Assembly: GCA_040771865.1 (NCBI GenBank)
Contig: JAXGZF010000008.1
Location: 146,722-196,629 of the forward strand
Direction: 5' to 3'
From: Desulfobacterales bacterium
GTDB taxonomy: Bacteria; Desulfobacterota; Desulfobacteria; Desulfobacterales; UBA2245
DNA length: 49,908 bases
The notes below the pieces were generated by a model. The model did not search any database. It was not told the origin of the DNA and saw only the letters and a program-made list of their open reading frames with translations. Positions 13,537 to 45,031 of this stretch are shown here, piece by piece. Each line of letters starts with the position of its first letter. Position 1 is the first letter of the stretch. Both the position numbers and the translations under genes were made by a program.

Positions 13537-13664
13537 TGACCTGCGTTGCTGTGTGCGGGAACCCTGAAGGATTTTTCTCCGGAATGTGGTCCCTAAAAAA
13601 GGCCACAACCTCAAGCTGTCACCTTCATCAAGGCGCCTGGCGATTTTCCCGGATTGAACCCTAA

Positions 13665-13807
13665 CAGAGCGTTGAAAAACAAGAATCAGGCAGCCAGGCA
13701 AGGCGCGCGGCGATGCGACAAGCGCAGCATATTCAAGCATATGTGAGCATTGGCGAGAGCCGCGCAACGCGGAATGGCGGCCTCAGACGCAGTTTTTCAA
13801 CAGCCTG
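13665..13807. mobile_element. MITE copy A (143 bp, ~16-bp TIR, CTAA target duplication)
   Basis: CTAA|CAGAGCGTTGAAAAAC...GTTTTTCAACAGCCTG|CTAA; near-identical to three other copies in the window. Confidence 0.88.
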
Positions 13808-13893
13808 CTAAAGCCGCATTTTCCTGACGGACCGCTGCTGCTCTGGGCGCATGGAAACGTTCATGTGCTCGCCAATTTGCTTTAACCGCCCTG

Positions 13894-14885: not shown

Positions 14886-14912
14886 TTTACCATTGCCGCC
14901 AAGATTTAAGGC

Positions 14913-15095
14913 CATTCGGCAGGTCTTCTGACTCGCGGATCATTCTAGTCCCCGCGCCTTCCCGCATCGATTCGTATTTTTCTTTCGATGCAGTGGCTTT
15001 CCCGCAGGTTTCGTCCTCGCTTACAGCGGCGGGTCCGTGCCGGATTTTCGCCGGGCTTCCCTCTTTTGTCGCCCTTTTGGGGCAACCGAATGCCG
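14913..15095 (-). ncRNA. Cobalamin (B12) riboswitch
   Basis: Minus strand CGGTTG...AAGAGGGAAGCCCGGCGAAAATCCGGCACGGACCCGCCGCTGTAAG...GCCACTG...GGGAAGGC...GAGTCAGAAGACCTGCC (B12 box). Confidence 0.95.
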
Positions 15096-15407
15096 AAATT
15101 GTGACTTTTCAGGTGCTCCTATCATATGGGGAAAACAACTGTCAATGAAATAAAGGGAGGAAAGAGTTCATCGTTTACGGCAATTTCGAATCCGGTTCAA
15201 ATATTTCCGAAATTCTTGAATTTGAATATTTAAACTGACCATCCACATTGACAGACAAACCCCGGCTGTGGTTTAGTGTAAATGATTGAATCAGGTGCGC
15301 ATGAACGTTAATTCAGTACAGGTGCGCATGAATTCCTGATCCCCCGTCATGAGAACCCGACCGGCGTTGTGGACAAAAACGGGTCCCTGTTTTGTTGGAG
15401 AAAAAAA

Positions 15408-22505: not shown

Positions 22506-22648
22506 GAGGGTGTTGAAAAACAAGAATCAGGCCGTCAGGCAAGGCGTGCGGTGATGCGACAAGCGCAGCATATTCAAGCATATGTGAGCATTGGCGAGAG
22601 CCGCGCCACGCTGAATGGCGGACTCAGGCGCAGTTTCTCAACAGCCTG
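22506..22648. mobile_element. MITE copy B (143 bp)
   Basis: GAGGGTGTTGAAAAAC...GTTTCTCAACAGCCTG|TTAA; between convergent genes. Confidence 0.88.
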
Positions 22649-22660
22649 TTAAAGAGTCTG

Positions 22661-29761: not shown

Positions 29762-30181
29762 ATGATGCTCCAGATTTCCGATACCGTGGCCATTTCACTT
29801 GGCGAGATTGAGATCAGCGCCGTCCGGGCGCAGGGCGCAGGGGGTCAGAATGTCAACAAGGTTTCCACCGCCGTGCATCTTCGCTTTGACATTCGCGCCT
29901 CATCCCTGCCGGATTTTTACAAGGACCGCCTGCTTGCGCTCAAGGACAGGCGTATTACCGGCGAGGGCGTCATTGTCATCAAGGCCCAGCGCTATCGAAC
30001 CCAGGATCAGAACCGGGAGGACGCACTGATCCGTCTTCAAAAGCTCATTCAAAATGCGGCCCGATCGCCTGAAAAACGGAAGCCCACCCGTCCGACCGCC
30101 GGTTCCCAGGAAAAACGTCTTGAGCACAAAACCCGGCGCGGGCGGATCAAATCCGCAAGAGGAAAGGTTCAAATTGAGTAA
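29762..30181 (+). CDS. arfB: Alternative ribosome rescue factor B (peptidyl-tRNA hydrolase)
   Basis: GAGGQNVNKVSTAV GGQ motif, basic C-terminal tail RKPTRPT. Confidence 0.93.
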   Translation: MMLQISDTVAISLGEIEISAVRAQGAGGQNVNKVSTAVHLRFDIRASSLPDFYKDRLLALKDRRITGEGVIVIKAQRYRTQDQNREDALIRLQKLIQNAARSPEKRKPTRPTAGSQEKRLEHKTRRGRIKSARGKVQIE

Positions 30182-30290
30182 ATTGAGGGTCGGGCCTCGG
30201 TAACGAATTGATATCATGAGCAATAGATTAAAAAAACACGCCAAAAAATGGCTTAAAAGGGCATTTTAGGGGTCAAAAACACACGTTTAA

Positions 30291-30433
30291 CAGGGTGCTG
30301 AAAAACAAGAATCAGGCCGTCAGGCAAGGCGCGTGGCGATGCGACAAGCGCAGCATATTGAAGCATATGTGAGCATTGGGGAGAGCCGCGCAACACTGAA
30401 TGGCGGCCTCGGACGCAGTTTTTCAACAGCCTG
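30291..30433. mobile_element. MITE copy C (143 bp)
   Basis: TTAA|CAGGGTGCTGAAAAAC...GTTTTTCAACAGCCTG|CTAA. Confidence 0.88.
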
Positions 30434-30435
30434 CT

Positions 30436-30612
30436 AAGAGCGCAAAGAACACCAAGAATAAAGAGAATTTGAATTACAAAGGGCGCGAAGAATCAAAAAG
30501 ACTGCATCAACACGAAGTCCACACTGTCCACAAAGTCCGCGAAGAATATAAGAATGGTGTCCCGCGAGGGTTCGAAGTAAACGAAGACTACAAAAGAAGT
30601 AATTCGCCAAGA
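30436..30612 (+). repeat. Degenerate NNCACGAAG repeat array (R0)
   Basis: ACACCAAGAATAAAGAG, GGGCGCGAAGAATCAAAA, CACGAAGTCCACACTGTCCACAAAGTCC; colinear with the array at 36545-36680. Confidence 0.7.
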
Positions 30613-30618
30613 AGGATG

Positions 30619-30692
30619 CAAGATCGAGCCGAATCCGGTCATTCACGGTTCGCTCATTCTTCCGGAGCGCAGGGCCCTGTTCCCAAAGGCCC
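30619..30692 (+). pseudogene. Fragment of an abiEii toxin gene
   Basis: 66/74 nt identical to 37972-38045 (KIEPNPVIxGSL region). Confidence 0.85.
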
Positions 30693-30799
30693 TGCAACCA
30701 TCTCTAAAAAAGAGACAATGGCATGGGGTGTGTCCGGACCGGAGCGGCAAGTGCCCGACCTGCAGCGCCGAAACCGCCGAATGGCGGAAGGACCACTGC

Positions 30800-32016: not shown

Positions 32017-32845
32017 TCAGTTTTTTAAAAGTTTTCGAACCTCCTTCTCATCCAGGTCATACCAGTGTCTGTAGGCCTCGGCCACGGCAAAAGAGTATGC
32101 GGTTCGAATGTTGGGGCAGAAAATTTTATCCACTTCCGCTGATATGTGCTCAATCGTGCGCAGCGGGGCAGTGGGAACGGCCACAACCGTTTCGCGTGCG
32201 CCGGCTTTTTTGACCATGTGGACCGCGGCCAGCATGGTGAAACCGGAGGCCAGACCGTCATCCACCAGAATGACCTTTTTCCCGGCAAGATCCGGAAAGG
32301 GGCGACCCTCTCGAAACCGGGCATTTCTATCTTCAAGCTCGATTCTGACCCGTGCTTTCTCCGCCTCGATCTGCGAATCCCTTAACAGGGTGTTGAAAAA
32401 CAAGGATCAGGCAGTCAGGCAAGGCGCGCGGCGATACGACAAGCGCAGCATATTCTCAAGCATATGTGAGCATTGGCGAGAGCCGTGCAACGCTGAATGG
32501 CGGCCTCAGACGCAGTTTTTCAACAGCTTGTTAAACGCAGCCCCGCAAAAGGGGCTCATTAAAGAAGGTCGTACCATCAATGGCCATGGCGCCGAAACCG
32601 GCTTCCGGGTTTCCCGGAATCTTCAATTTCCTCACAATGATCAGATCAAAGGAAAGGCCCAATATGTCCCGCACCTTAATTCCCACCGGAACGCCGCCCG
32701 CGGGAACAGCAAGGACCATTCCTTTCTCGATATGCGCGTATTCGGGTTCCAACATCCTTGCCAGTATTTCTCCCGCCTCAAAACGATCTGGAAACAGGTA
32801 GCGCCGATCACGAAATTTTTCTATTTCATGGATTGCTGTCCTCAT
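32017..32845 (-). pseudogene. Phosphoribosyltransferase-family gene split by MITE copy D (plus 1-nt frameshift)
   Basis: N-half FPDRFEAG, AVPAGGVPVG, VRKLKIPGNPEAGFGA (32531-32845); C-half VILVDDGLASGFT PRPP loop (32017-32385). Confidence 0.9.
32386..32530. mobile_element. MITE copy D (145 bp, TTAA target duplication)
   Basis: TTAA|CAGGGTGTTGAAAAAC...GTTTTTCAACAGCTTG|TTAA inside a CDS. Confidence 0.92.
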
Positions 32846-33278: not shown

Positions 33279-33376
33279 TGGCGGAAGTGCATGGGAATCG
33301 AACCCACCCGGGACGGTATTAGCGCCCCACACCGGATTTGAAGTCCGGGAGCCCCACCAGTGAGCTGCGCACTTCC
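33279..33376 (-). tRNA. selC: tRNA-Sec(TCA)
   Basis: Minus strand GGAAGTGC...CCGGACTTCAAATCCGG...GGTTCGATTCCCATGCACTTCCGCCA; 8-bp acceptor stem, UCA anticodon, long variable arm. Confidence 0.96.
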
Positions 33377-33437: not shown

Positions 33438-33790
33438 CCCGGAAGGTTGCAAAGAATAAAGAGCTTGAACCACGAAGTTCACAGAGAACTCGAAGATTGA
33501 AGAGAATGCTTCACCGCGAAGGTTGCGAAGGACATGAAGAAAAGAGAGCTTGAACCACGAAATTTGAAGCAGAACCGCCTGCGGATATGATCCAATCAGG
33601 CAAAACGCTAATTGTCTCCTTTAAAAACTGAATCATTGCAAGTAATTACATTACTTTACATTCATTATAAAAAAAGCATAAAAAACATAAAATAAAGTCT
33701 TCATTCCGCTAAACTTTCTTGACCTTTGTGGTAAAAAAAGCTTTCGTTCTAACCGAACCTTCGAGCCATTCATGACCTTGGCGGTAAAAC
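33438..33790. repeat. NNCACGAAG array R1: forward arm, AT-rich core, inverted arm
   Basis: ACCACGAAG-TTCACAGAG-AACTCGAAG etc. (33438-33562); CTTTGTGGT and CTTGGCGGT inverted units (33713-33790). Confidence 0.8.
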
Positions 33791-33913
33791 GAATTGATCA
33801 GGCGCGGTGTAACGGCAAGGCCAGCGGACATTTTTCAGGACAAATTCTGTTTGATAAATTATGATTATGCTGTATTTATATGGTGTTATTAAATCATATA
33901 ACCGGACATTATT

Positions 33914-35116
33914 ATGGACATTTCTGAAGACGAAGGATTATCCGTTAATTTCACGAGACGCATCGAAACCGCACGCTTCGGCCTGTTTATCTTTCAAGTC
34001 GGCGTGGATGAACATGAGGCGGCCATGCCGTTGCAGCGGGTTGCCGATGCGCAGGAGCGATTCCTGAGCGCCCTCCTTTTCCAGGTGGAGAGCCTTCTGG
34101 AGCAGGAAGTTCTGGTCAGCAGCATCTTTAGCACCAATACCATTGAAGGAGGCACGCTGACCGAAGAAGAAACCAAAGACGCGCTCACGCTCGACCCCGC
34201 GGAGGTGCAGGCCGTAGAACAGCGGCGAGCCGTCAACATCAAGACCGCATATGACATCGCCCGGAAATCGGCGCAAGACCCTGGCTGGCGTTTGTCGGTG
34301 GATTTCATCAAGCAGATCCATGCTCTGATTACCGACGGTATTCCCCACAAACGCAACCGGCCCGGACAGATCCGGAACAACCCCAAAAGCATCGTGACCT
34401 ATGTCGGCGATACGGCTCACGGCGGGCGTTATAATCCGCCGCAGTACGAAGGAGACATAGCGCTTCTGCTCGATCATCTGACAATCTGGCACGACGAGTT
34501 GTTTACCGCTGAAATACCGGCTCTGATTCGCGCGCCCCTGACGCATTACTATTTTGAATTGATTCATCCTTTCTGGGACGGCAATGGCCGCGTCGGGCGG
34601 GTGCTCGAAGCGACCGTGCTTCATGCCGCCGGCTTCCGCTACGCCCCCTTTGCCGTGGCGCGCTACTACATGGAGCGGATCGATGAGTACTTTACCCTGT
34701 TCAATCTATGCCGCAAACAGGCGGACAAAAAAACGGCATACCCAAACACCCCTTTTGTCCTGTTTCACCTCGACGGAATGCTGGCCGGCATCAACCGCCT
34801 TCACGACCGGCTGAACGTCATGGTTCAATTTTTGCTTTTTGAAACAAGAATCAAGCAGCTGCGCGACGCAAAAAAAATCAATCCGCGCCAGTACGTCATT
34901 CTGACCCAGGTGATGGAGCGGGACAAACCCTTCAGAATAGGTGAACTGCGCCGGGCGCCGTGGTATGAGGCGCTTTATGCCAAACTGGGCGACAAGACCC
35001 GACAGCGGGACTTGAGCGGACTTTGTGAGCAGGCGCTTCTGTATATTGATGAGAAAGGCCTCGTCCGGCCGGGGTTTTTTGAGATCGGACTGAACATACG
35101 ACACAGAATAAGCTAA
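33914..35116 (+). CDS. Fic-family protein (AMPylase, class II-like)
   Basis: HPFWDGNGRVGR Fic motif; N-terminal TNTIEG inhibitory-helix motif; start codon uncertain. Confidence 0.9.
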   Translation: MDISEDEGLSVNFTRRIETARFGLFIFQVGVDEHEAAMPLQRVADAQERFLSALLFQVESLLEQEVLVSSIFSTNTIEGGTLTEEETKDALTLDPAEVQAVEQRRAVNIKTAYDIARKSAQDPGWRLSVDFIKQIHALITDGIPHKRNRPGQIRNNPKSIVTYVGDTAHGGRYNPPQYEGDIALLLDHLTIWHDELFTAEIPALIRAPLTHYYFELIHPFWDGNGRVGRVLEATVLHAAGFRYAPFAVARYYMERIDEYFTLFNLCRKQADKKTAYPNTPFVLFHLDGMLAGINRLHDRLNVMVQFLLFETRIKQLRDAKKINPRQYVILTQVMERDKPFRIGELRRAPWYEALYAKLGDKTRQRDLSGLCEQALLYIDEKGLVRPGFFEIGLNIRHRIS

Positions 35117-35151
35117 AAATTGCGCTGTGCGCAACGTGAAACGGAATGGGT

Positions 35152-35285
35152 CCACCACGAAGATTGAAGAGAAGTGCTTCACCACGAAGGGCACGAAGAA
35201 AAAAGGAATGAAGCCCTAAATCTTCGCGCCCTTTGTGGTAAAAAACAAAAAAATCTTCACGACCTTCATGCCCCTCGTGGTAAAA
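35152..35285. repeat. NNCACGAAG array R2 (forward and inverted arms, palindromic)
   Basis: ACCACGAAG...ACCACGAAGGGCACGAAG / CTTCGCGCCCTTTGTGGT...CTTCATGCCCCTCGTGGT. Confidence 0.8.
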
Positions 35286-35335
35286 TAACATCTCATTTGT
35301 GGTCAAATAAAACGGCAATAAAAGGAGAATCCGGA

Positions 35336-36520
35336 ATGCTGGCCTATTTCGACTGTTTTTCCGGCATCAGCGGGGATATGACCCTGGGCGCCCTGATCGA
35401 TCTCGGGGTGCCGGAGACATGGCTCATACAGAATCTGGAGCAAATTCCTCTCAAGGATTTCGAGCTGTCTACGGAGCGAACCACCCGAAAGGGAATTTCC
35501 GGGGTTCGAGTGCGGGTGCGTTCATTCGAAAAAGTGACTCACCGGCATTATGCGGACATCGTTTCCCTGATTCGGGGAAGCGGGCTTTCCGGGCGCGTTC
35601 AACAGCTGAGCCTGGACATGTTCGACCGGATCGCGACGGCCGAGGCCGCCGTTCACGGATGCGACAAGCAGCATGTGCATTTTCACGAGGTCGGCGCCGT
35701 GGATGCCATCGTGGATATTGTCGGAACCTGCCTCTGCCTGGAATACCTGAACATTTCGCGGGTGATCGGTTCCCGGCTTCTGCTGGGCTCGGGGTTTGTG
35801 ACCTGCGCGCACGGAACCCTGCCGGTACCAGCGCCCGCAGTGCTTGAAATTCTTAAGAACGTTCCGGTGTGCGGGGCCGATACAGGCCATGAACTGGTCA
35901 CGCCCACGGGCGCGACCATTATCGCCTCCATTGCCGAATCGTTTGCGCTCATGCCCGACATGCGCGTTGAAAAAATCGGATACGGGGCCGGGCAACGGGA
36001 TCTGGAAGACCGGCCGAACCTGCTTCGGGTCGTGATGGGAAACGATGATGCCTCGTCTGCCGAGGGCCGGGATTCGGTCGCGGTCATTGAAACGTGCATC
36101 GACGACATGAATCCGGAAATCTTCGGGTTTGTAATGGACCGGCTCTTTGAAGCAGGGGCCCTGGATGTGAGCTGGACCCCGGTTTTCATGAAGAAAAACC
36201 GGCCGGCAACGAAAGTTGAGGTCCTCTGCCCGCCGGACAAAAAAGAAGCCGTGATGCAGTGCCTCTTCAACGAAACCACCACGCTGGGAATCCGGTATTC
36301 CGAAATCCGGCGAAGGATTCTGGAACGTAAAGCCGAAACGGTGGACAGCGTTTACGGGCCGGTTGTTGTCAAACGGATCCGGCAGGCGGACGGCACCGAG
36401 CGCCTGGCGCCGGAGTACGAGGCGTGCAGACGCATTGCGCTTGAAAAAAACATACCCGTTCGCGTTGTCTACGACGCCGTGATCGAAAAATGCCTTCAGG
36501 CCGACAGGGCAGGGAAGTGA
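35336..36520 (+). CDS. larC: Nickel pincer cofactor biosynthesis protein LarC
   Basis: YFDCFSGISGDMTLGAL, VHFHEVGAVDAIVD, HGTLPVPAPA, TPTGA, MKKNRP, PEYE; AGGAG RBS, ATG at 35336. Confidence 0.94.
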   Translation: MLAYFDCFSGISGDMTLGALIDLGVPETWLIQNLEQIPLKDFELSTERTTRKGISGVRVRVRSFEKVTHRHYADIVSLIRGSGLSGRVQQLSLDMFDRIATAEAAVHGCDKQHVHFHEVGAVDAIVDIVGTCLCLEYLNISRVIGSRLLLGSGFVTCAHGTLPVPAPAVLEILKNVPVCGADTGHELVTPTGATIIASIAESFALMPDMRVEKIGYGAGQRDLEDRPNLLRVVMGNDDASSAEGRDSVAVIETCIDDMNPEIFGFVMDRLFEAGALDVSWTPVFMKKNRPATKVEVLCPPDKKEAVMQCLFNETTTLGIRYSEIRRRILERKAETVDSVYGPVVVKRIRQADGTERLAPEYEACRRIALEKNIPVRVVYDAVIEKCLQADRAGK

Positions 36521-36531
36521 TTCGCCATGAA

Positions 36532-36735
36532 AAATAAAAGAGCCTGAACCACGAAGGGCACGAAGGACACCAAGAATAAAAGAGTTCTACACCACGAAGG
36601 TTACGAAGGGCACGAAAAATCAAAAGGGCTTCACCACAAAGTCCGCAATGTCCACAAAGTCCACGGTAAATAAAAGAATTTTGAACCACGGAGTTCACGA
36701 AGGACACGAAGAATAAAGAGCTTGAACCACGAAGG
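36532..36735 (+). repeat. NNCACGAAG array R3 (forward arm, about 5 units of ~42 bp)
   Basis: Unit = AATAAAAGAGCTTGA-like linker + ACCACGAAG + 2-3 further NNCACGAAG 9-mers. Confidence 0.85.
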
Positions 36736-36817
36736 TGTGGTAGAAAAATCGTTCTTGTCCGGCCTGCATCGCGGTTTGATAATATTTATCCATGGAGAGT
36801 AAAGCTCTACTAAAACG

Positions 36818-36858
36818 AACATATTCAAACCAAAACTTGACATCGGTTTAAATATATT
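36818..36858. promoter_or_regulatory. Inverted-repeat operator around the -35 box of abiE
   Basis: AACATATTCAAACCAA ... TCGGTTTAAATATATT (13/16) bracketing TTGACA at 36837. Confidence 0.55.
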
Positions 36859-36863
36859 GTTAA

Positions 36864-37652
36864 TTGACGACTATGGATACTGATATAAAGACAAAAATAA
36901 ACCGCCTCATAAGCCAGTGGACGATGGGCGCCCCCAGCACCACTTCTTTTATGGTTGCTTCCGGCTTCAGTCGTGATCTGCTCGTCAAATACAAGAACAG
37001 CGGCTGGCTGGAGCCCTTTGGACGGGGCGCCTACATACGCTGCGGAGACAAGGTTGACTGGCCGGGCGCTCTTTTTACGCTTCAGAGACAACTGGGCCTC
37101 CCTGTGCACGCAGGGGGGAAAACGGCGCTGGAGCGAAAGGGCTATGCCCACTACCTGCCGGAAAGGCAAACGAGGATCTTTCTATATGGCCCGCGCGGAC
37201 TCATCCTGCCGGCCTGGTTCAGGGGCGATCGTTTGGGAGTCGATTTCGTGGTGACACGAACGAATCTCTTTCCGCCGGAAAATCATGAAGGCTTTTCCGA
37301 ATTCAAGGAGAAGGACTTTTCCGTTCGGATATCGGCGCCGGAACGAGCGATGCTGGAGATGCTTCATCTGGTTCCCCGAAAGGTCGGGTTCGATGAGGCC
37401 CGTTTGGTCATGGGAAACCTGGTCGCGCTGAGGCCGGAACTCGTCCAGAGATTGCTGGAGGAATGCCGTTCGGTCAAGGTGAAAAGGCTCTTTCTTTATA
37501 TGGCCGAGAGCCAGGAACACGCCTGGCTTTCAAAAGTGGATTTGTCAAAAGTCGATCTCGGGAAGGGAAAACGGATGATCGTCTCGCATGGCCGATATGA
37601 TCCAAAATATCGCATCACCGTCCCCGTTGATCGAGAAGAAATGACCCGATGA
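36864..37652 (+). CDS. abiEi: Type IV TA antitoxin, AbiEi family
   Basis: SGWLEPFGRGAY, HAGGKTALE, ISAPERAMLEML, CRSVKVKRLFLYMAE, DLGKGKR. Confidence 0.88.
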   Translation: MTTMDTDIKTKINRLISQWTMGAPSTTSFMVASGFSRDLLVKYKNSGWLEPFGRGAYIRCGDKVDWPGALFTLQRQLGLPVHAGGKTALERKGYAHYLPERQTRIFLYGPRGLILPAWFRGDRLGVDFVVTRTNLFPPENHEGFSEFKEKDFSVRISAPERAMLEMLHLVPRKVGFDEARLVMGNLVALRPELVQRLLEECRSVKVKRLFLYMAESQEHAWLSKVDLSKVDLGKGKRMIVSHGRYDPKYRITVPVDREEMTR

Positions 37653-38566
37653 TTGACAACGTGTACTTCAGACAAGCCGAACTGCTCCTGCGGGTTCTGC
37701 CGCTGGTCGATCGTGAGGCCGTCTTTGCCCTGAAGGGCGGGACGGCCATCAATTTTTTCTTCAGAAATCTTCCGCGTGTTTCCGTTGACATCGATCTTGC
37801 CTATATTCCCATAGGCGAACGCGATTTGTCGCTTCGCGAGATCAGCAATGCTCTGATCCGTATTTCCCGGAATGTCGAAAGCCGAATTCCGAAGACGAAG
37901 ATTTTTCCCAAGAAGATCAAAGGTGGTGAACTTTGGAGCGGATGTTTGGTTCAACGAAAGGATGCGACGATCAAGATCGAGCCGAATCCGGTCATTCGCG
38001 GTTCGCTTTTTCCCCCGGAACGCAGGACCCTGTCCCCAAAGGCCCGAAACGTATTTGAACTTTCCGTGGAGTGTCGAACCCTTGTGGAAGATGAGCTTTA
38101 CGCAGGGAAGATCTGTGCCGTCCTGGATCGTCAGCACCCACGAGATCTCTTCGATGTCATGATGCTTTTCAGAGAGAGGGCCTTGAACGACGACATGCGA
38201 AAGGCGTTTATCGTTTACCTGATCAGCCATGACCGGCCGATGGTGGAAATCCTCAATCCGGGATTCGCCGATATCCGCCCAGCCTTCGAAACCGAATTTC
38301 GAGATATGGCTTCGGAAAAGGTGACCTGCGAGGACTTGGAGAAGACCAGAGAAAAACTGGTCTCCATGATTGCGAGAGAACTGACCCTTCAGGAAAAGCA
38401 ATTCATCGTATCAGTCAAAGAGGGGATGCCGCAATGGGAACTGATCGGCTTGGAAGGGGTCAGAAACCTGCCCGCCGTCCAGTGGAAACTCTTGAATATC
38501 GGTCGAATGGCTCCGGCCAAGCATCGACAAGCTCTTCGTAAATTGAGAGATTATCTGGCCGTATAG
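37649..38566 (+). CDS. abiEii: Type IV TA toxin, AbiEii/AbiGii nucleotidyltransferase
   Basis: FALKGGTAIN, RVSVDIDL, GKICAVLDRQHPRDLFD; ATGA overlap with the antitoxin. Confidence 0.92.
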   Translation: MIDNVYFRQAELLLRVLPLVDREAVFALKGGTAINFFFRNLPRVSVDIDLAYIPIGERDLSLREISNALIRISRNVESRIPKTKIFPKKIKGGELWSGCLVQRKDATIKIEPNPVIRGSLFPPERRTLSPKARNVFELSVECRTLVEDELYAGKICAVLDRQHPRDLFDVMMLFRERALNDDMRKAFIVYLISHDRPMVEILNPGFADIRPAFETEFRDMASEKVTCEDLEKTREKLVSMIARELTLQEKQFIVSVKEGMPQWELIGLEGVRNLPAVQWKLLNIGRMAPAKHRQALRKLRDYLAV

Positions 38567-38574
38567 GCTGCCGT

Positions 38575-38989
38575 TTCACCACAAAGATCACAGAGAACGC
38601 GAAGGATAAAAGGGCTTGAACCACGAAGGGCACGAAGAAAAAAGGAATGGAGCCTTTATTCGTATTTTCAAGGCAATAAAAGAATTGTTTCACCACGAAG
38701 ATCACAGAGAACACGAAGAATAAAAGAGCTTGAACGACGAAGGGCATGAAGGACACAAAGAATAAAGAGCTTAAACCACGAAGTTTGAAGCACAATCGCC
38801 AGCGTCTATGAAATCGATCGGGCAAAATTAAAATTTTCTACCCTGAATAATGGATTTTACAACAATATCGGTATGTTAAAATATTCTAAAAAGCATACAA
38901 AAATAAAGATCTTCATTCCGCTAAACCTTCGTGTCCTTCGTGCCCTTCGTGGTAAAAGTTCTTTCGTTCTTAAACCTTCGCGGTAAAAA
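38575..38989. repeat. NNCACGAAG array R4: forward arm, AT-rich core, inverted arm; diverged direct repeat of R1
   Basis: Five forward units at 38575-38785; CTTCGTGTCCTTCGTGCCCTTCGTGGT inverted arm; shared blocks TTTGAAGCA, AAAAAGCATA, TCTTCATTCCGCTAAAC, CTTTCGTTCT with R1. Confidence 0.85.
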
Positions 38990-39081
38990 TGGCTTGGCGC
39001 ACCAGTTTCAATGGTCCGCCGGAACCCCAAGATTCATATCCGGCTCTTGACAAAAAACAGGTCAGGTTATAGAGACCATGC

Positions 39082-39552
39082 ATGAATTTGTCCAGCAAGG
39101 CAGTTCTTTTTCTGGCCACCGGATTCGGCGTCGGAAGAATTCCCTTTGCTCCGGGAACCTTCGGCTCGATCGCGGGATTGCCCTTTTGCCTGATGCTGGC
39201 ATCTGTTTCCAGGCCGGTTTCGGCCGCGCTGCTGGTCGGGTTCATTCTGATCGCCGTTCCGGTCGCTTCGAGGGCAGCGTGCATGCTCGGGGAAAAGGAC
39301 CCAGGGTGCATCGTCATCGATGAAATGGCCGGAATCCTGGTCGCCCTGTGGGGAATCCCTTTCAAGTTTTTGCCGGTTTGCGCCGGCTTTTTGATATTCA
39401 GGGTTCTGGATATTGCCAAACCCTTTCCCATAGGGTATCTTGACAGAACGCTTTCCGGAGGAACGGGAATCGTCGCCGACGATCTGGCGGCGGGTCTGAT
39501 CGGCAATCTTCTGCTCAGAGTTTTCCTTGCGCTGTTCGGAAGGGCAGCGTGA
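39082..39552 (+). CDS. pgpA: Phosphatidylglycerophosphatase A
   Basis: PFAPGTFGS, KDPGCIVIDE, FRVLDIAKPFPI, DDLAAG. Confidence 0.94.
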   Translation: MNLSSKAVLFLATGFGVGRIPFAPGTFGSIAGLPFCLMLASVSRPVSAALLVGFILIAVPVASRAACMLGEKDPGCIVIDEMAGILVALWGIPFKFLPVCAGFLIFRVLDIAKPFPIGYLDRTLSGGTGIVADDLAAGLIGNLLLRVFLALFGRAA

Positions 39553-39603: not shown

Positions 39604-40269
39604 TTGAAATCACAGAGTATATCCGAAGAATCTCAGGCGCCGCAGGAAACTCAGGCGCCTGTCCGGCGCAAGGGCAGGATCCGCGAAAACGTAGAGGTCA
39701 TTCTGATAGCGGTCCTGCTGGCCCTGTTCATCCGTTCATTCATAGTTCAGGCTTTCAAGATTCCTTCCGGATCCATGAAGCAGACCCTGCTGATCGGAGA
39801 TCACATCTTTGTCAACAAGTTCATCTACGGCGTCAAGATCCCCTTCATCAACAAGACCCTGATTCACGTCAAGAATCCCAAACGCGGGGACATCGTGGTG
39901 TTTGAATTTCCCGAGGATCCGGACAAGGACTTCATCAAACGGGTGGTCGGAGAGCCCGGAGACGTCGTGCAGATCATCAATAAGAAGGTCTACGTCAATG
40001 GGGTGGTTGCCGACGATTCCAACAGCATCTACATGGACCCGCACATTCTGCCCTCCCGCGCCCAGCCCAGGGACAATTTCGGACCGGTGACCGTTCCGGA
40101 AAATTCCCTGTTCGTTATGGGCGACAACCGGGATCAGAGCTACGACAGCCGGTTCTGGGGATTCGTGAGTCTCGATGCGGTCAAGGGCAAGGCGTTTATC
40201 ATTTACTGGTCCTGGAACAAGGAAAGATTCGGGGTTCGATGGGACCGGCTCGGCAAAATTCTAAGATAA
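39604..40269 (+). CDS. lepB: Signal peptidase I
   Basis: IPSGSM, GDIVVF, FIKRVVG, GDNRDQSYDSRFWG. Confidence 0.95.
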   Translation: MKSQSISEESQAPQETQAPVRRKGRIRENVEVILIAVLLALFIRSFIVQAFKIPSGSMKQTLLIGDHIFVNKFIYGVKIPFINKTLIHVKNPKRGDIVVFEFPEDPDKDFIKRVVGEPGDVVQIINKKVYVNGVVADDSNSIYMDPHILPSRAQPRDNFGPVTVPENSLFVMGDNRDQSYDSRFWGFVSLDAVKGKAFIIYWSWNKERFGVRWDRLGKILR

Positions 40270-41226: not shown

Positions 41227-42505
41227 GGGCGGACGGGTCGTGGACCCCGGAAACATCGACGGCGTCGCCGATGTCTGGATTCAGGATGAAAAGATTCTGC
41301 GCGTGGTTCCGCAGGGTCAGGCGGATGAAAATTCAGAGGCTTCCGGCGCGCCCGACCGGGTGATCGACGCCAATGGCTGGATCGTCGCGCCCGGCTTGAT
41401 CGATATGCACGTGCATTTCCGGGAACCCGGAGAGGAATACAAGGAAACCATCGAAACCGGATGCGCCGCCGCCGCCGCGGGCGGTTTCACGGCGGTCTGC
41501 ACCATGCCCAACACGCGGCCGGTCAACGACTGCCTTCAGGTGACGGAGTTCATACTTGAACAGGCGGAAAAAGCCTGCGGGGTTCGCGTGCATCCCGTGG
41601 CCGCGGTCAGCATGGGGCTCGAGGGAAAGGCGCTCTGCGAATACGCCGAGCTCAAGCGGGCCGGGGTCATCGCCCTGTCCGACGACGGCCGGCCGGTGAC
41701 GAGCAGCCTGCTGATGAGAAGAGCCCTTGAATACGCAAAGGGATTCGGGCTTTTGATCATATCGCACTGCGAGGACCCGGACCTGGCGCCCGGAGGCGTC
41801 ATGAACGAGGGACCCGCAGCCACGCGCATGGGGCTTCAGGGAATTCCCAACGCCGTGGAAAGCATCATGGTAATGCGGGACATCGCCCTGGCCGAGCTGA
41901 CCGGCGGCCGGCTGCACATCGCCCATGTGAGCACGCTGGAATCGGTGCGCGCGATTCGGGACGCCAAGAAGCGGGGAGTTCGAGTGACGGCGGAAACCGC
42001 CCCGCACTATTTCACCCTGATCGATGAAAACGTCGGGGCCTACAACACCCATGCCAAGATGAATCCGCCCCTGCGTTCCGAAAAGGACCGGGAGGCGGTG
42101 ATCGCGGGCCTGGCCGACGGCACGATCGACGCGATCGCCACGGACCACGCGCCGCACAGCAGCCTTGAAAAAGACCTGGAGTTTGACCTTGCCGCCAACG
42201 GCATCATCGGCCTGGAAACCTCCCTGCCCCTGTCTTTGAAGCTGGTTGCATCCGGGGCGCTTTCCATGCCGGACCTGATTCGCAAGATGTCGAAAAATCC
42301 CGCCCGCATTCTGAACCTTACGCGCGAGATCCGGCCGGGCGCAATCGCCGACCTGACCCTGATCGATCCGAATGCCAAATATCGCATTCAGGCCGAAAAC
42401 TTCCGGTCCCGCAGCCGCAACACGCCTTTTGACGGATGGGAGGCAACAGGAAGGGCGGTGGGAACGATTGTGGGGGGGAAGATTGTTTGGAGGGCTGAGG
42501 GATGA
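41210..42505 (+). CDS. pyrC: Dihydroorotase
   Basis: [38 protein letters not shown] at 41210 overlapping pyrB. Confidence 0.95.
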
Positions 42506-42635
42506 GACCTGAAACCTGAGGGGAAGCAGAGGGATGAGGGCTGAAACCTGAGACCTGAAGGGGAAAGATGAGGGCTGAGGGATGAGACTTGAAAGAAGAG
42601 GGCTGAAAGATGAGGGATGAGGCCTGAAAGCTGAA
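42490..42635 (+). repeat. Heptamer tandem array (GAGGGAT/GAGGGCT/GAAACCT/GAGACCT; consensus GARRSMT, about 20 units)
   Basis: Read directly from the sequence; begins in the last codons of pyrC; reverse-complement units at 43035-43082 and 43628-43650. Confidence 0.85.
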
Positions 42636-42644
42636 AAAAAAAGG

Positions 42645-43019
42645 ATGGAGAGGGTTGAAGACTGGAAGGAAATGATGCGGCAGCGGACCTGGCGGTTCGC
42701 ATCCCTGATCATTCGTTTTTACTGCACGTTGCCGAAAAACAGAATGGAATGTCAGGTGATCGGCAAGCAGCTTCTCCGGTCCGGCACATCGGTAGCCGCC
42801 AACTACCGGGAAGCATCCAGAGCGCGAAGCAACGCCGAGTTTATTTCAAAAATTGAGCTGTGTGTCCAGGAAGCCGACGAAACCTCTCTCCGGCTTGAAC
42901 TCCTTCGCGACGACTGCGGCATCGTATCTGAACGGCTCGTTGAATTACTTGATGAATCCAACCAACTGATCTCGATATTTGTTACGATGTCGAAAAATGT
43001 AAAGAAACGCCAACAATGA
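42645..43019 (+). CDS. Four-helix-bundle protein (23S rRNA IVS / Avd-like family)
   Basis: IGKQLLRSGTSVAANYREASRARSNAEFISK...EADET..LELL; true start may be 42672. Confidence 0.9.
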   Translation: MERVEDWKEMMRQRTWRFASLIIRFYCTLPKNRMECQVIGKQLLRSGTSVAANYREASRARSNAEFISKIELCVQEADETSLRLELLRDDCGIVSERLVELLDESNQLISIFVTMSKNVKKRQQ

Positions 43020-43095
43020 AAAACCACACCCACACTCAGGTTTCATTCCTCAGCCCTCCTCCGACCCCTCTAAAGTCTCAGCATAAGAGGTCGCC

Positions 43096-43609
43096 ATGAA
43101 CGAAATCATACCCATAGAAAACATCTCCAAACTGATTTACCAGGTTCGCGGCCAAAAGGTGATGTTGGACTGTGATTTGGCTGAGCTCTATGGTGTCGAA
43201 ACCAGGGTGCTAAATCAGGCTGTCAGAAGAAACATAGAGCGTTTTCCTGAAGATTTTATGATAGCCCTTACCCGTGATGAGATTTCAAGGATATCACAAA
43301 TTGTGACATCCTCTAATATCAAGTATGCAAAAAGAGTTCACGCTTTTACCGAACAGGGTGTGGCCATGCTTTCCAGTATTCTGCGAAGCAGATCAGCCAT
43401 TCAGATCAATATCCAGATCATGCGGGCATTTACCAAGCTCAGACAGCTCATATTCGACAGTGCCGATCTTCGCCGCGAAATTGAAGAATTACGTCATGAA
43501 ACCGACGGCAGGTTTCGAATAGTTTTCCAAACCTTGGAACAATTGCTGACACAGGGGAAAAAGCCTCAAAAGAAAATCGGTTTTACGGCAAAAGAAAAGG
43601 AGGCCGGAT

Positions 43610-43620
<11 letters not shown>
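43096..43620 (+). CDS. ORF6N-domain DNA-binding protein
   Basis: VRGQKVMLDCDLAELYGVET..LNQAVRRNIERFPEDFM, AFTEQGVAMLSSIL, KKIGF. Confidence 0.9.

Positions 43621-45031
<1,411 letters not shown>

Follow-up and report, generated by a model that had tools for sequence, protein, structure and literature searches.

The intervening sequences (IVSs) of 23S rRNA and the mosaics of repetitive extragenic palindromic (REP) sequences known as bacterial interspersed mosaic elements (BIMEs) are among the described systems that come closest to the subject of this paper. Genes of the GxxExxY family occur in 23S rRNA IVSs, according to the NCBI family description. REP sequences are generally species-specific, and IS1397 inserts in BIMEs. 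For Coxiella, the passages of the published account used here describe an IVS with an open reading frame (ORF) inside a stem that is excised by RNase III, and with tandem heptamers upstream of the ORF whose number varies between strains (PMC4990558). Here we describe four repeat arrays, R1 to R4, in the gaps of the gene row selC-fic-larC-abiEi/abiEii-pgpA. They lie in a 49,908-nt stretch of DNA (the window, whose numbering is used throughout) from contig JAXGZF010000008.1 of a Desulfobacterales bacterium. The arrays appear related to known kinds of repeat, namely IVS elements and REP/BIME mosaics; the main new fact is the distribution of the repeat beyond this genome.

The literature search covered text without figures or supplements, so an earlier description is possible. 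Within it, the six 16-nt arm words used occurred in no bacterial paper and in two unrelated mammalian ones. Searching for CACGAAG repeats returned only unrelated primers, and the GxxExxY family name returned nothing on flanking repeats.

Tandem 9-nt arms in four consecutive gaps

The source genome is referred to below as G000 and its sister species as G001; the window belongs to contig C8 of G000, and contigs C9 and C11 also carry arrays. The building block in all four gaps is a 9-nt unit, two free nucleotides plus the 7-nt core CACGAAG or a near variant (NNCACGAAG), and tandem units make up an arm. The window has 23 copies of CACGAAG, whereas shuffled sequence has 6.06 ± 2.33 and none of 100 shuffles reaches 23; 18 of the 23 copies fall within 33471-38951.

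The arrays differ in layout and in predicted folding. In R1 (33438-33800; repeat families D1, D3, D4 and D6), an AT-rich stretch of about 130 nt separates three forward arms from two reverse arms, all of them degenerate; the array is eroded, and its predicted fold is weak (z -2.0 against shuffled sequences). R2 (35145-35292) has forward arms, a short loop and reverse arms, which together give a strong predicted hairpin (-50 kcal/mol, z -6.35). R3 (36530-36735, plus strand; families D1, D2 and D4) holds forward units only, at a period of about 42-43 nt, and has no predicted fold of its own (z -0.6). R4 (38573-38990) runs from forward units through an AT-rich core to reverse units (inverted pairs I1-I5); its predicted fold reaches -116.8 kcal/mol (z -6.1), and it is predicted from the inverted pairs to pair both locally and, across abiE, with R3. 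R1, R2 and R4 are assigned to no strand. By Tandem Repeats Finder (TRF), R3 has a period of 43 nt (2.3 copies, 80% matches), and 9-nt periods are present in both R3 and R4. A wider repeat search gave families D1-D9 and nine inverted pairs (I1-I9), including a 51-nt unit with 10 copies over R1, R3 and R4, and reverse-type units in R1, R2 and R4. One inverted pair, 36530-36574 with 38927-38971, is 45 nt long and 82% complementary; its halves lie 2352 nt apart and bracket abiE. Linkers recur between arrays: ATTGAAGAGAA(G)TGCTTCACC is common to R1 and R2, and AAAAAAGGAATGRAGCC to R2 and R4 (family D5).

A preliminary description of this DNA had placed an array with a two-level unit of about 42 bp in every gap of the row, with reverse-complement arms in R1, R2 and R4, an R3 forward arm able to pair with an R4 inverted arm over abiE, and linker variants shared by R1/R2 and R2/R4. 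All of this is borne out by the sequence, the CACGAAG excess, the TRF period and the repeat families. The description was also right that the arrays are not CRISPR arrays: the units are 9 nt long with two free nucleotides, and the linkers recur from array to array. Its picture of hairpin arrays fits R2 and R4, which are predicted to fold strongly, fits the weakly folding R1 less well, and does not fit R3 taken alone. Rfam matched nothing in the arrays, either at gathering score or at E≤1, and in compact elements from 12 loci (described below) it gave only sub-threshold matches to microRNA-like hairpins. The idea that the arms are coding sequence (HEG/HEE or FVP repeats) was dropped by eye; the frames lack a consistent start, and none of the arrays falls within an ORF supported by Pfam.

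The 2.98-Mb assembly holds 233 copies of CACGAAG and 10 clusters of at least three, four of them in the window, five on C9 and one on C11. A BLAST search with the four arrays returned the same sites and one extra on C9; together with reading by eye it adds two weaker arrays (C9:128.0k and window about 30441-30600), which brings the number to about 12. The weaker one in the window is a degenerate fifth array followed by an abiEii-like fragment of about 75 nt (30441-30720 in all, plus strand). The C9 arrays neighbour genes that, by eye and without a family library, look like those for a histidine kinase, an SMC-like ATPase, a TetR-like protein, a B12-dependent mutase-like protein and an acetolactate-synthase-like protein; arrays in this genome are therefore not restricted to toxin or defence genes. 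One contig of the sister species (G001:C33) holds both the right end of the window and the C9 region, so the C8 and C9 arrays probably share one neighbourhood of about 100 kb.

Occurrence of the repeat beyond this genome

We surveyed 201 genomes from 126 genera of the same order for the doublet CACGAAGNNCACGAAG, with the reversed pattern as a control. The doublet was present in 62 of the genomes and in 41 of the genera. It was counted 12 times in G000, 103 times in G001 and between 99 and 409 times in four other families, the highest count belonging to G125; the reversed pattern occurred 0-2 times per genome.

A scan for the triple unit, with one genome per species, revealed at least 127 stretches, and 80 of the loci were read. 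By title, the records among the matches listed belong to Desulfobacterota, Acidobacteriota, Planctomycetota, Verrucomicrobiota, Herpetosiphon and other Chloroflexota, Binatia, Methylomirabilota, Nitrospirae, and Gamma- and Alphaproteobacteria. Judged by sequence, the arrays of the window thus belong to a repeat family found in many phyla.

Outside this genus the repeat usually takes a compact form, TTnAC-CACGAAG-nn-CACGAAG-nn-CACGAAG followed by a loop and by the reverse complement ending in GTnAA. Among 82 distinct elements the outer AC..GT was fully paired in 61, and the loop had a median length of 45.5 nt (range 12-288). Spacers and loops are similar inside one genome (G016 for the loops), like a family of copies. 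At one locus of a high-copy genome (L210), arms also stand between ordinary housekeeping and biosynthetic genes.

GxxExxY genes between the arms

In other genomes the same arms often bracket a gene of about 125 aa of the GxxExxY family (TIGR04256, PD-(D/E)XK-like). Two arms lie within a few bases of a 123-aa GxxExxY gene in G028. In G149, two such genes sit in an operon resembling a type VI secretion system (T6SS), each with arms on both sides, and G045 has two more arm-bracketed copies in an island rich in small toxin-antitoxin-like pairs. TIGR04256 matches of the bracketed genes reach 2e-45 and 4e-41. In two Planctomycetota records an ORF start that by eye resembles the GxxExxY N-terminus comes directly after the forward arm. 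The T6SS-like operon (G149:C233, L204; tssF-, tssG- and clpV-like ORFs by eye) has an arm pair in every gap.

We took the best-scoring GxxExxY locus from each of 40 genomes and counted it as bracketed if one 7-mer stood upstream in at least two tandem units and its complement stood downstream, with a period of exactly 9 nt. By this rule 21 of the 40 loci were bracketed, compared with 0.01 in shuffled flanks; laxer rules gave 28 of 40 against 4.1. The 7-mers around these loci are of at least 12 kinds, including CACGAAG, CATGAAG, CACGGAG, CACAGAG, CGCAGAG, CGCGAAG, CACGGAA and CACGAAT, and protein clades follow the 7-mer. That the 7-mer changes while complementarity stays argues for pairing of the two arms. 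On this sequence pattern, the GxxExxY gene and its arms appear to be inherited together.

A profile search of the two genomes revealed no GxxExxY gene in G000 or G001, and the family is accordingly rejected as a required partner of the repeat in this genus. Among the surveyed genomes, 47 of the 62 with the repeat carry a GxxExxY gene, as do 77 of the 139 without it (odds ratio 2.5, uncorrected for kinship). Because it is missing from several repeat-bearing genomes, the gene may be regarded as a frequent passenger or founder, with no requirement for it; and since G000 has none, its arrays look like gene-less, locally amplified derivatives. The family is named in only three papers of the literature searched, and the passage at hand says nothing on its function; GxxExxY proteins, under PDDEXK_3, are listed as of unknown function in the part of the PD-(D/E)XK survey consulted (Steczkiewicz et al. 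2012, PMC3424549).

A second element in the window and the parallel with 23S rRNA

A second kind of element lies between pyrC and a sigma-54 response regulator gene (42505-43650, plus strand; TRF and sequence). It consists of tandem heptamer arms (42505-42640; TRF periods 7/14/21), a four-helix-bundle gene (42645-43019; TIGR02436, 5.5e-20), a complementary arm, a 174-aa ORF and a further complementary arm. The four-helix-bundle gene is the sole copy in the genome and belongs to the S23p family, known from 23S rRNA intervening sequences. In the sister species, 1.1 kb of the element is missing and just a heptamer tract remains.

The likeness to 23S rRNA IVSs extends over several features. In both, an ORF lies in a long stem of inverted flanks with short tandem repeats of variable number beside it; the same two protein families recur, TIGR02436 in the window and TIGR04256 in relatives; and occurrence is patchy, consistent with horizontal spread. 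Stems are predicted in the R2 and R4 folds, in the 82% complementary arms over abiE and in the arms around GxxExxY genes. The elements described here differ in lying between protein genes, outside helix 25 or 45 of 23S rRNA. No S23p/four-helix-bundle or GxxExxY ORF is present within 33438-38989, and the arms of this stretch are multiplied into mosaics; some arms enclose other genes (abiE here; elsewhere a TumE-like gene with a helix-turn-helix (HTH) gene). On this comparison, the arrays would be best filed beside the ORF-bearing IVS elements, as members outside rRNA and without an ORF.

Three further kinds of repeat bear comparison with the arrays. Cyanobacterial short tandemly repeated repetitive (STRR) heptamers also fill intergenic gaps with short tandem units, and the tract at 42505-42640 is of such a kind; to our knowledge, STRRs have not been described as paired inverted arms around a gene. 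Set against miniature inverted-repeat transposable elements (MITEs), the arms act as inverted ends and the loops are alike within G016; no duplication was found at them, and the arrays of the window are mosaics. Type III toxin-antitoxin systems differ in that the arrays offer no precise repeats upstream of a toxin, R3 having 2.3 copies at 80%, and that they flank non-toxin genes.

The conserved gene block and its variable gaps

Genes were called by Pfam profile matches and tRNAs by ARAGORN and Rfam. The tRNA-SeC gene selC (33279-33376, minus strand; ARAGORN, and Rfam RF01852 at 76.1 bits) is the left anchor of a conserved block and pgpA (39082-39552, plus strand; PgpA, 2.5e-41) the right one. 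Between them, all on the plus strand, come a Fic-domain gene (33914-35116; Fic, 5.8e-15), which occupies the variable gap between selC and larC, then larC for a nickel insertion protein (35336-36520; Ni_insertion, 5.3e-151), itself a gene of the conserved block, and the abiEi-abiEii pair (36864-38566; AbiEi_3, 1.6e-50; AbiEii, 3.5e-32), with AbiEi at 36864-37652 and AbiEii at 37649-38566. After pgpA follow the signal peptidase gene lepB (39604-40269; Peptidase_S26, 9.2e-53) and then pyrB. Elsewhere in the window, a cobalamin riboswitch lies on the minus strand at 14901-15105 (RF00174, 114 bits).

In four outgroup families, whose larC is 52-57% identical to that of G000, larC and pgpA are 130-290 bp apart and the gap holds no arrays. 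As larC adjoins pgpA there, the 2.6 kb made up of R3, abiE and R4 is an insertion; by this comparison of gene order, abiE has been inserted in a gene block that is conserved throughout the order. The selC-larC gap measures about 200 bp in one family and holds an ORF of about 380 aa (M20 peptidase-like by eye) in two others. The contents of this gap thus vary between families, and fic is what occupies it in G000. The fic stretch next to selC had no match in other families among the matches listed, and Fic had no tblastn match at the five outgroup loci tested. In another family (G016:C75, L019), other short tandem repeats occur in the selC-ORF and ORF-larC gaps and give ORF-like MLDAGYW and GQRSEV repeats.

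Every gene-sized difference between G000 and G001 in the stretches compared adjoins an array or another tandem-repeat tract. The R2 gap of G001 contains an extra 2.1 kb with an AAA_14/DUF4143 ORF. Beside R4, a Y1_Tnp ORF replaces the 3' end of abiEii in G001, leaving that gene truncated. On C9, a 256-aa ORF is found only in G000, G001 having nine consecutive reverse units instead, and about 1.5 kb between large arrays is found only in G001. The Y1_Tnp element and a 150-bp MITE sit in arrays of the sister species. Neither a target-site duplication nor a fixed breakpoint was found at the arrays or insertions.

The same DNA carries traces of other mobile sequences. An abiEii piece of about 75 nt, corresponding to 37965-38039 within the gene, recurs outside it at 30626-30700 and, in G001, between fic and larC (L016), where it matches at 91% and lies upstream of the AAA_14/DUF4143 ORF; TCTCTAAAAAAGAGA follows it each time, and the recurrent piece looks like what an older insertion into a copy of abiEii left behind. 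The Y1_Tnp ORF of G001 (L016), which resembles a REP-associated tyrosine transposase (RAYT), is part of an element with GGGTCGGGCCACG and its complement at the ends; in G000 this element has left end remnants only (30181-30290 and C9:151023-151427). The 150-bp MITE, with terminal inverted repeats of about 20 nt (TTAACAGGGTGTTGAAAAAC...), occurs in the window at 32382-32535, 30287-30437, 13662-13812 and 22507-22653. BLAST gave 86 matches in G000, 72 of them nearly full length, and there are dozens in G001 and G025. At 32382-32535 the MITE interrupts a phosphoribosyltransferase-like gene on the minus strand, intact in G001, and two contigs end within MITE copies.

Outside the genus, abiEii relatives were found at 13 loci in 12 genomes of the order, and none of the 13 had CACGAAG arms within 1.5 kb; the doublet does occur elsewhere in eight of the 12 genomes, three of which have 66, 23 and 17 copies. 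As abiEii relatives elsewhere lack arms, the cargo does not travel with the arms, and this proposal was rejected. A different cargo is seen in G120, of one other family, where a forward arm and a reverse arm enclose a TumE-like gene together with an HTH gene. The best match to the integron integrase profile TIGR02249 in the genome scored 85.1 bits against a cut-off of 265, and an integron integrase was therefore rejected. Y1_Tnp gave seven matches in G000, six above cut-off, and none of these genes is at a CACGAAG cluster.

The preliminary description had taken the arrays for an undescribed cassette system, and these results divide its claims. Variable genes are delimited by arrays, as it proposed, and cargo other than abiE does occur inside arms (the TumE/HTH pair in one other family, GxxExxY genes in several genomes). 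Of the two empty sites it suggested looking for, larC-pgpA is empty in all four outgroup families; selC-larC is about 200 bp in one family and filled by another ORF in two. A system peculiar to this lineage is contradicted by a family that spans many phyla, and a restriction to toxin or defence genes by the arms between housekeeping genes at L210 and the C9 arrays beside ordinary genes. It also suggested looking for a co-occurring recombinase or HUH nuclease; none is linked to the arrays, as the genome has no integron integrase and no GxxExxY gene and its Y1 transposases lie elsewhere. Cargo that moves with its arms found no support at the abiEii loci.

Parts of the stretch are present in 20 sequencing runs, two of them RNA by record; the four that we examined all consist of contigs. 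Contigs from RNA libraries cover fic and abiEi in part, along with one array (apparently that of C11), and such contigs cannot reveal transcription, ends or processing. A hydrocarbon-metagenome run contains many array-to-array joints, as expected of repeats, and no usable empty site.

Origin and possible roles of the arrays

We give slightly better than even chances to the reading that the arrays are passive IVS-like and BIME-like repeats: members of a widespread palindromic family that carry no gene and have been amplified locally. The arms would have multiplied by tandem duplication and by exchange between arrays into BIME-like mosaics. In a transcript that runs over an array, forward and reverse arms would pair into a helix of about 25 bp, with 7-bp steps and 2x2 mismatches between them. 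Such a stepped helix would suit RNase III, the enzyme that cuts IVS stems, and would also protect 3' ends. The flanking genes would thereby be split into separate, insulated messages, and an inserted gene such as fic or abiE could reside in a housekeeping block without harm. At the DNA level the repeats would be fragile, recombination-prone sites at which gene gains and losses, MITEs and the Y1 transposase accumulate; the arrays would mark and tolerate insertions and would not catalyse them.

The resemblance to REP/BIME mosaics and to REPINs is close in architecture. Both are intergenic imperfect palindromes in alternating orientation with few linker types, both start soon after stop codons, and both are insertion sites for other mobile elements, here the MITE and the Y1_Tnp element in the arrays of G001. 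They differ in that the arms are tandem 9-mers and not one palindrome, that no RAYT is associated, and that the same sequence recurs across phyla. Genome-wide dispersal, typical of REPs, is absent here (ten clusters on three contigs) and is seen in other genomes (409 doublets in G125).

Several observations weigh against passive repeats of this kind. The 2-nt spacers of the 82 compact elements pair at chance level (0.70 against 0.63 ± 0.07 Watson-Crick pairs per two), and a helix does not need repetition of the 7-mer, so a protein that reads the unit fits at least equally well. Local folding is impossible for some arrays, as R3 has forward units only and R1 is eroded. The arrays of this genus are confined to few neighbourhoods, unlike dispersed REP elements. 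The association of GxxExxY with the repeat is only moderate (odds ratio 2.5), and no GxxExxY gene is present in genomes that hold 103, 56 and 33 doublets. The RNA-library data are contigs, incapable of revealing ends or processing. Finally, abiE sits inside the 45-nt, 82% complementary arm pair and the TumE/HTH pair lies between arms in G120; these enclosed genes leave room for real cargo capture.

That last point leads to the alternative of a true cassette system, which we think unlikely. Here the arms would be hairpin or cruciform recombination sites and a structure-specific enzyme, either a GxxExxY nuclease of the donor genome or a host resolvase, would move the DNA between forward and reverse arm; fic and abiE would have entered in that way. 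The arm pair around abiE is what such a system would leave, as are the arms that bracket GxxExxY genes, the TumE/HTH pair and the two GxxExxY genes in the T6SS-like operon of G149. Protein clade and 7-mer vary in concert, which would be expected of arms and a gene that move as a unit, and gene-sized presence or absence between G000 and G001 is bounded by arrays on both sides at four sites. Against this, indels are expected to accumulate in any repeat-rich gap, and arms also occur between housekeeping genes without variable cargo. Neither G000 nor G001 has a GxxExxY gene or, in the case of G000, an integron integrase; no target-site duplication or fixed breakpoint was found; and the abiEii relatives in 12 genomes have no CACGAAG arms although eight of these genomes hold the doublet elsewhere. 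Given abiEii relatives without arms and the lack of a linked recombinase, a dedicated cassette system is no more than possible on the sequence evidence, and recombinational capture of the cargo is hypothetical.

Integron cassettes are a described system of comparable layout. In both cases a row of single genes or small modules is divided up by imperfect palindromes (G149 is an example here), and toxin-antitoxin modules are among the cargo. The arms described here stand on both sides of a gene and not after it, abiE relatives elsewhere lack them, and there is no integron integrase and no attI or common promoter to be seen. The attC layout, with its R''/L''/L'/R' boxes, is also unlike tandem 9-mers.

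A wider proposal, which we put forward as a doubtful one, is that inverted arms of tandem 9-mers and of tandem 7-mers, GxxExxY genes and four-helix-bundle genes together form one undescribed class of mobile cassettes in many phyla, with 23S rRNA IVSs as its best-known landing place. The GxxExxY protein would recognise the stepped helix of its own arms (7 bp, then a 2x2 mismatch) and cut or resolve it, moving or processing the enclosed DNA, AbiE and TumE modules included; gene-less hairpins and the arrays of the window would be non-autonomous offspring.

The spacer result also bears on a third explanation, in which the units are operator-like or nucleoid sites in duplex DNA and an oligomeric protein reads each 7-mer at 9-bp steps, controlling or insulating the neighbours. 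A conserved 7-mer next to 2-nt spacers that vary without covariation, one 7-mer repeated two to four times per arm, and identical 7-mers across phyla would all agree with such a protein. However, steps of 9 bp place successive sites on different faces of B-DNA, the 7-mers are of at least 12 kinds, each with its own complement opposite, which fits pairing or co-inheritance better than one factor, and no candidate protein co-occurs in G000. We consider this explanation improbable. Mobilisation of REP/BIME elements by a RAYT (Y1, HUH) transposase, which intergenic palindromic mosaics with shared linkers, the six Y1_Tnp matches above cut-off and the Y1_Tnp ORF inside the R4 array of G001 might suggest, is very improbable and was rejected: the Y1_Tnp genes of G000 all lie away from the arrays, that of G001 is flanked by an inverted repeat of another kind (GGGTCGGGCCACG) and looks inserted into the array, and the arms are identical across phyla whereas REP sequences are specific to a species.

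Significance

For annotation, the arrays account for spurious repeat-derived ORFs, and gaps that contain them can be flagged as places where genes are often gained or lost and where assemblies tend to break. If the reading as passive IVS-like and BIME-like repeats is true, stems that split messages would let foreign genes sit harmlessly in housekeeping operons. ORF-bearing 23S rRNA IVSs, scattered GxxExxY and four-helix-bundle genes, and intergenic hairpin repeats, which reach hundreds of copies per genome in several phyla, are now regarded separately and would then be one family, and the GxxExxY proteins would gain a testable function.

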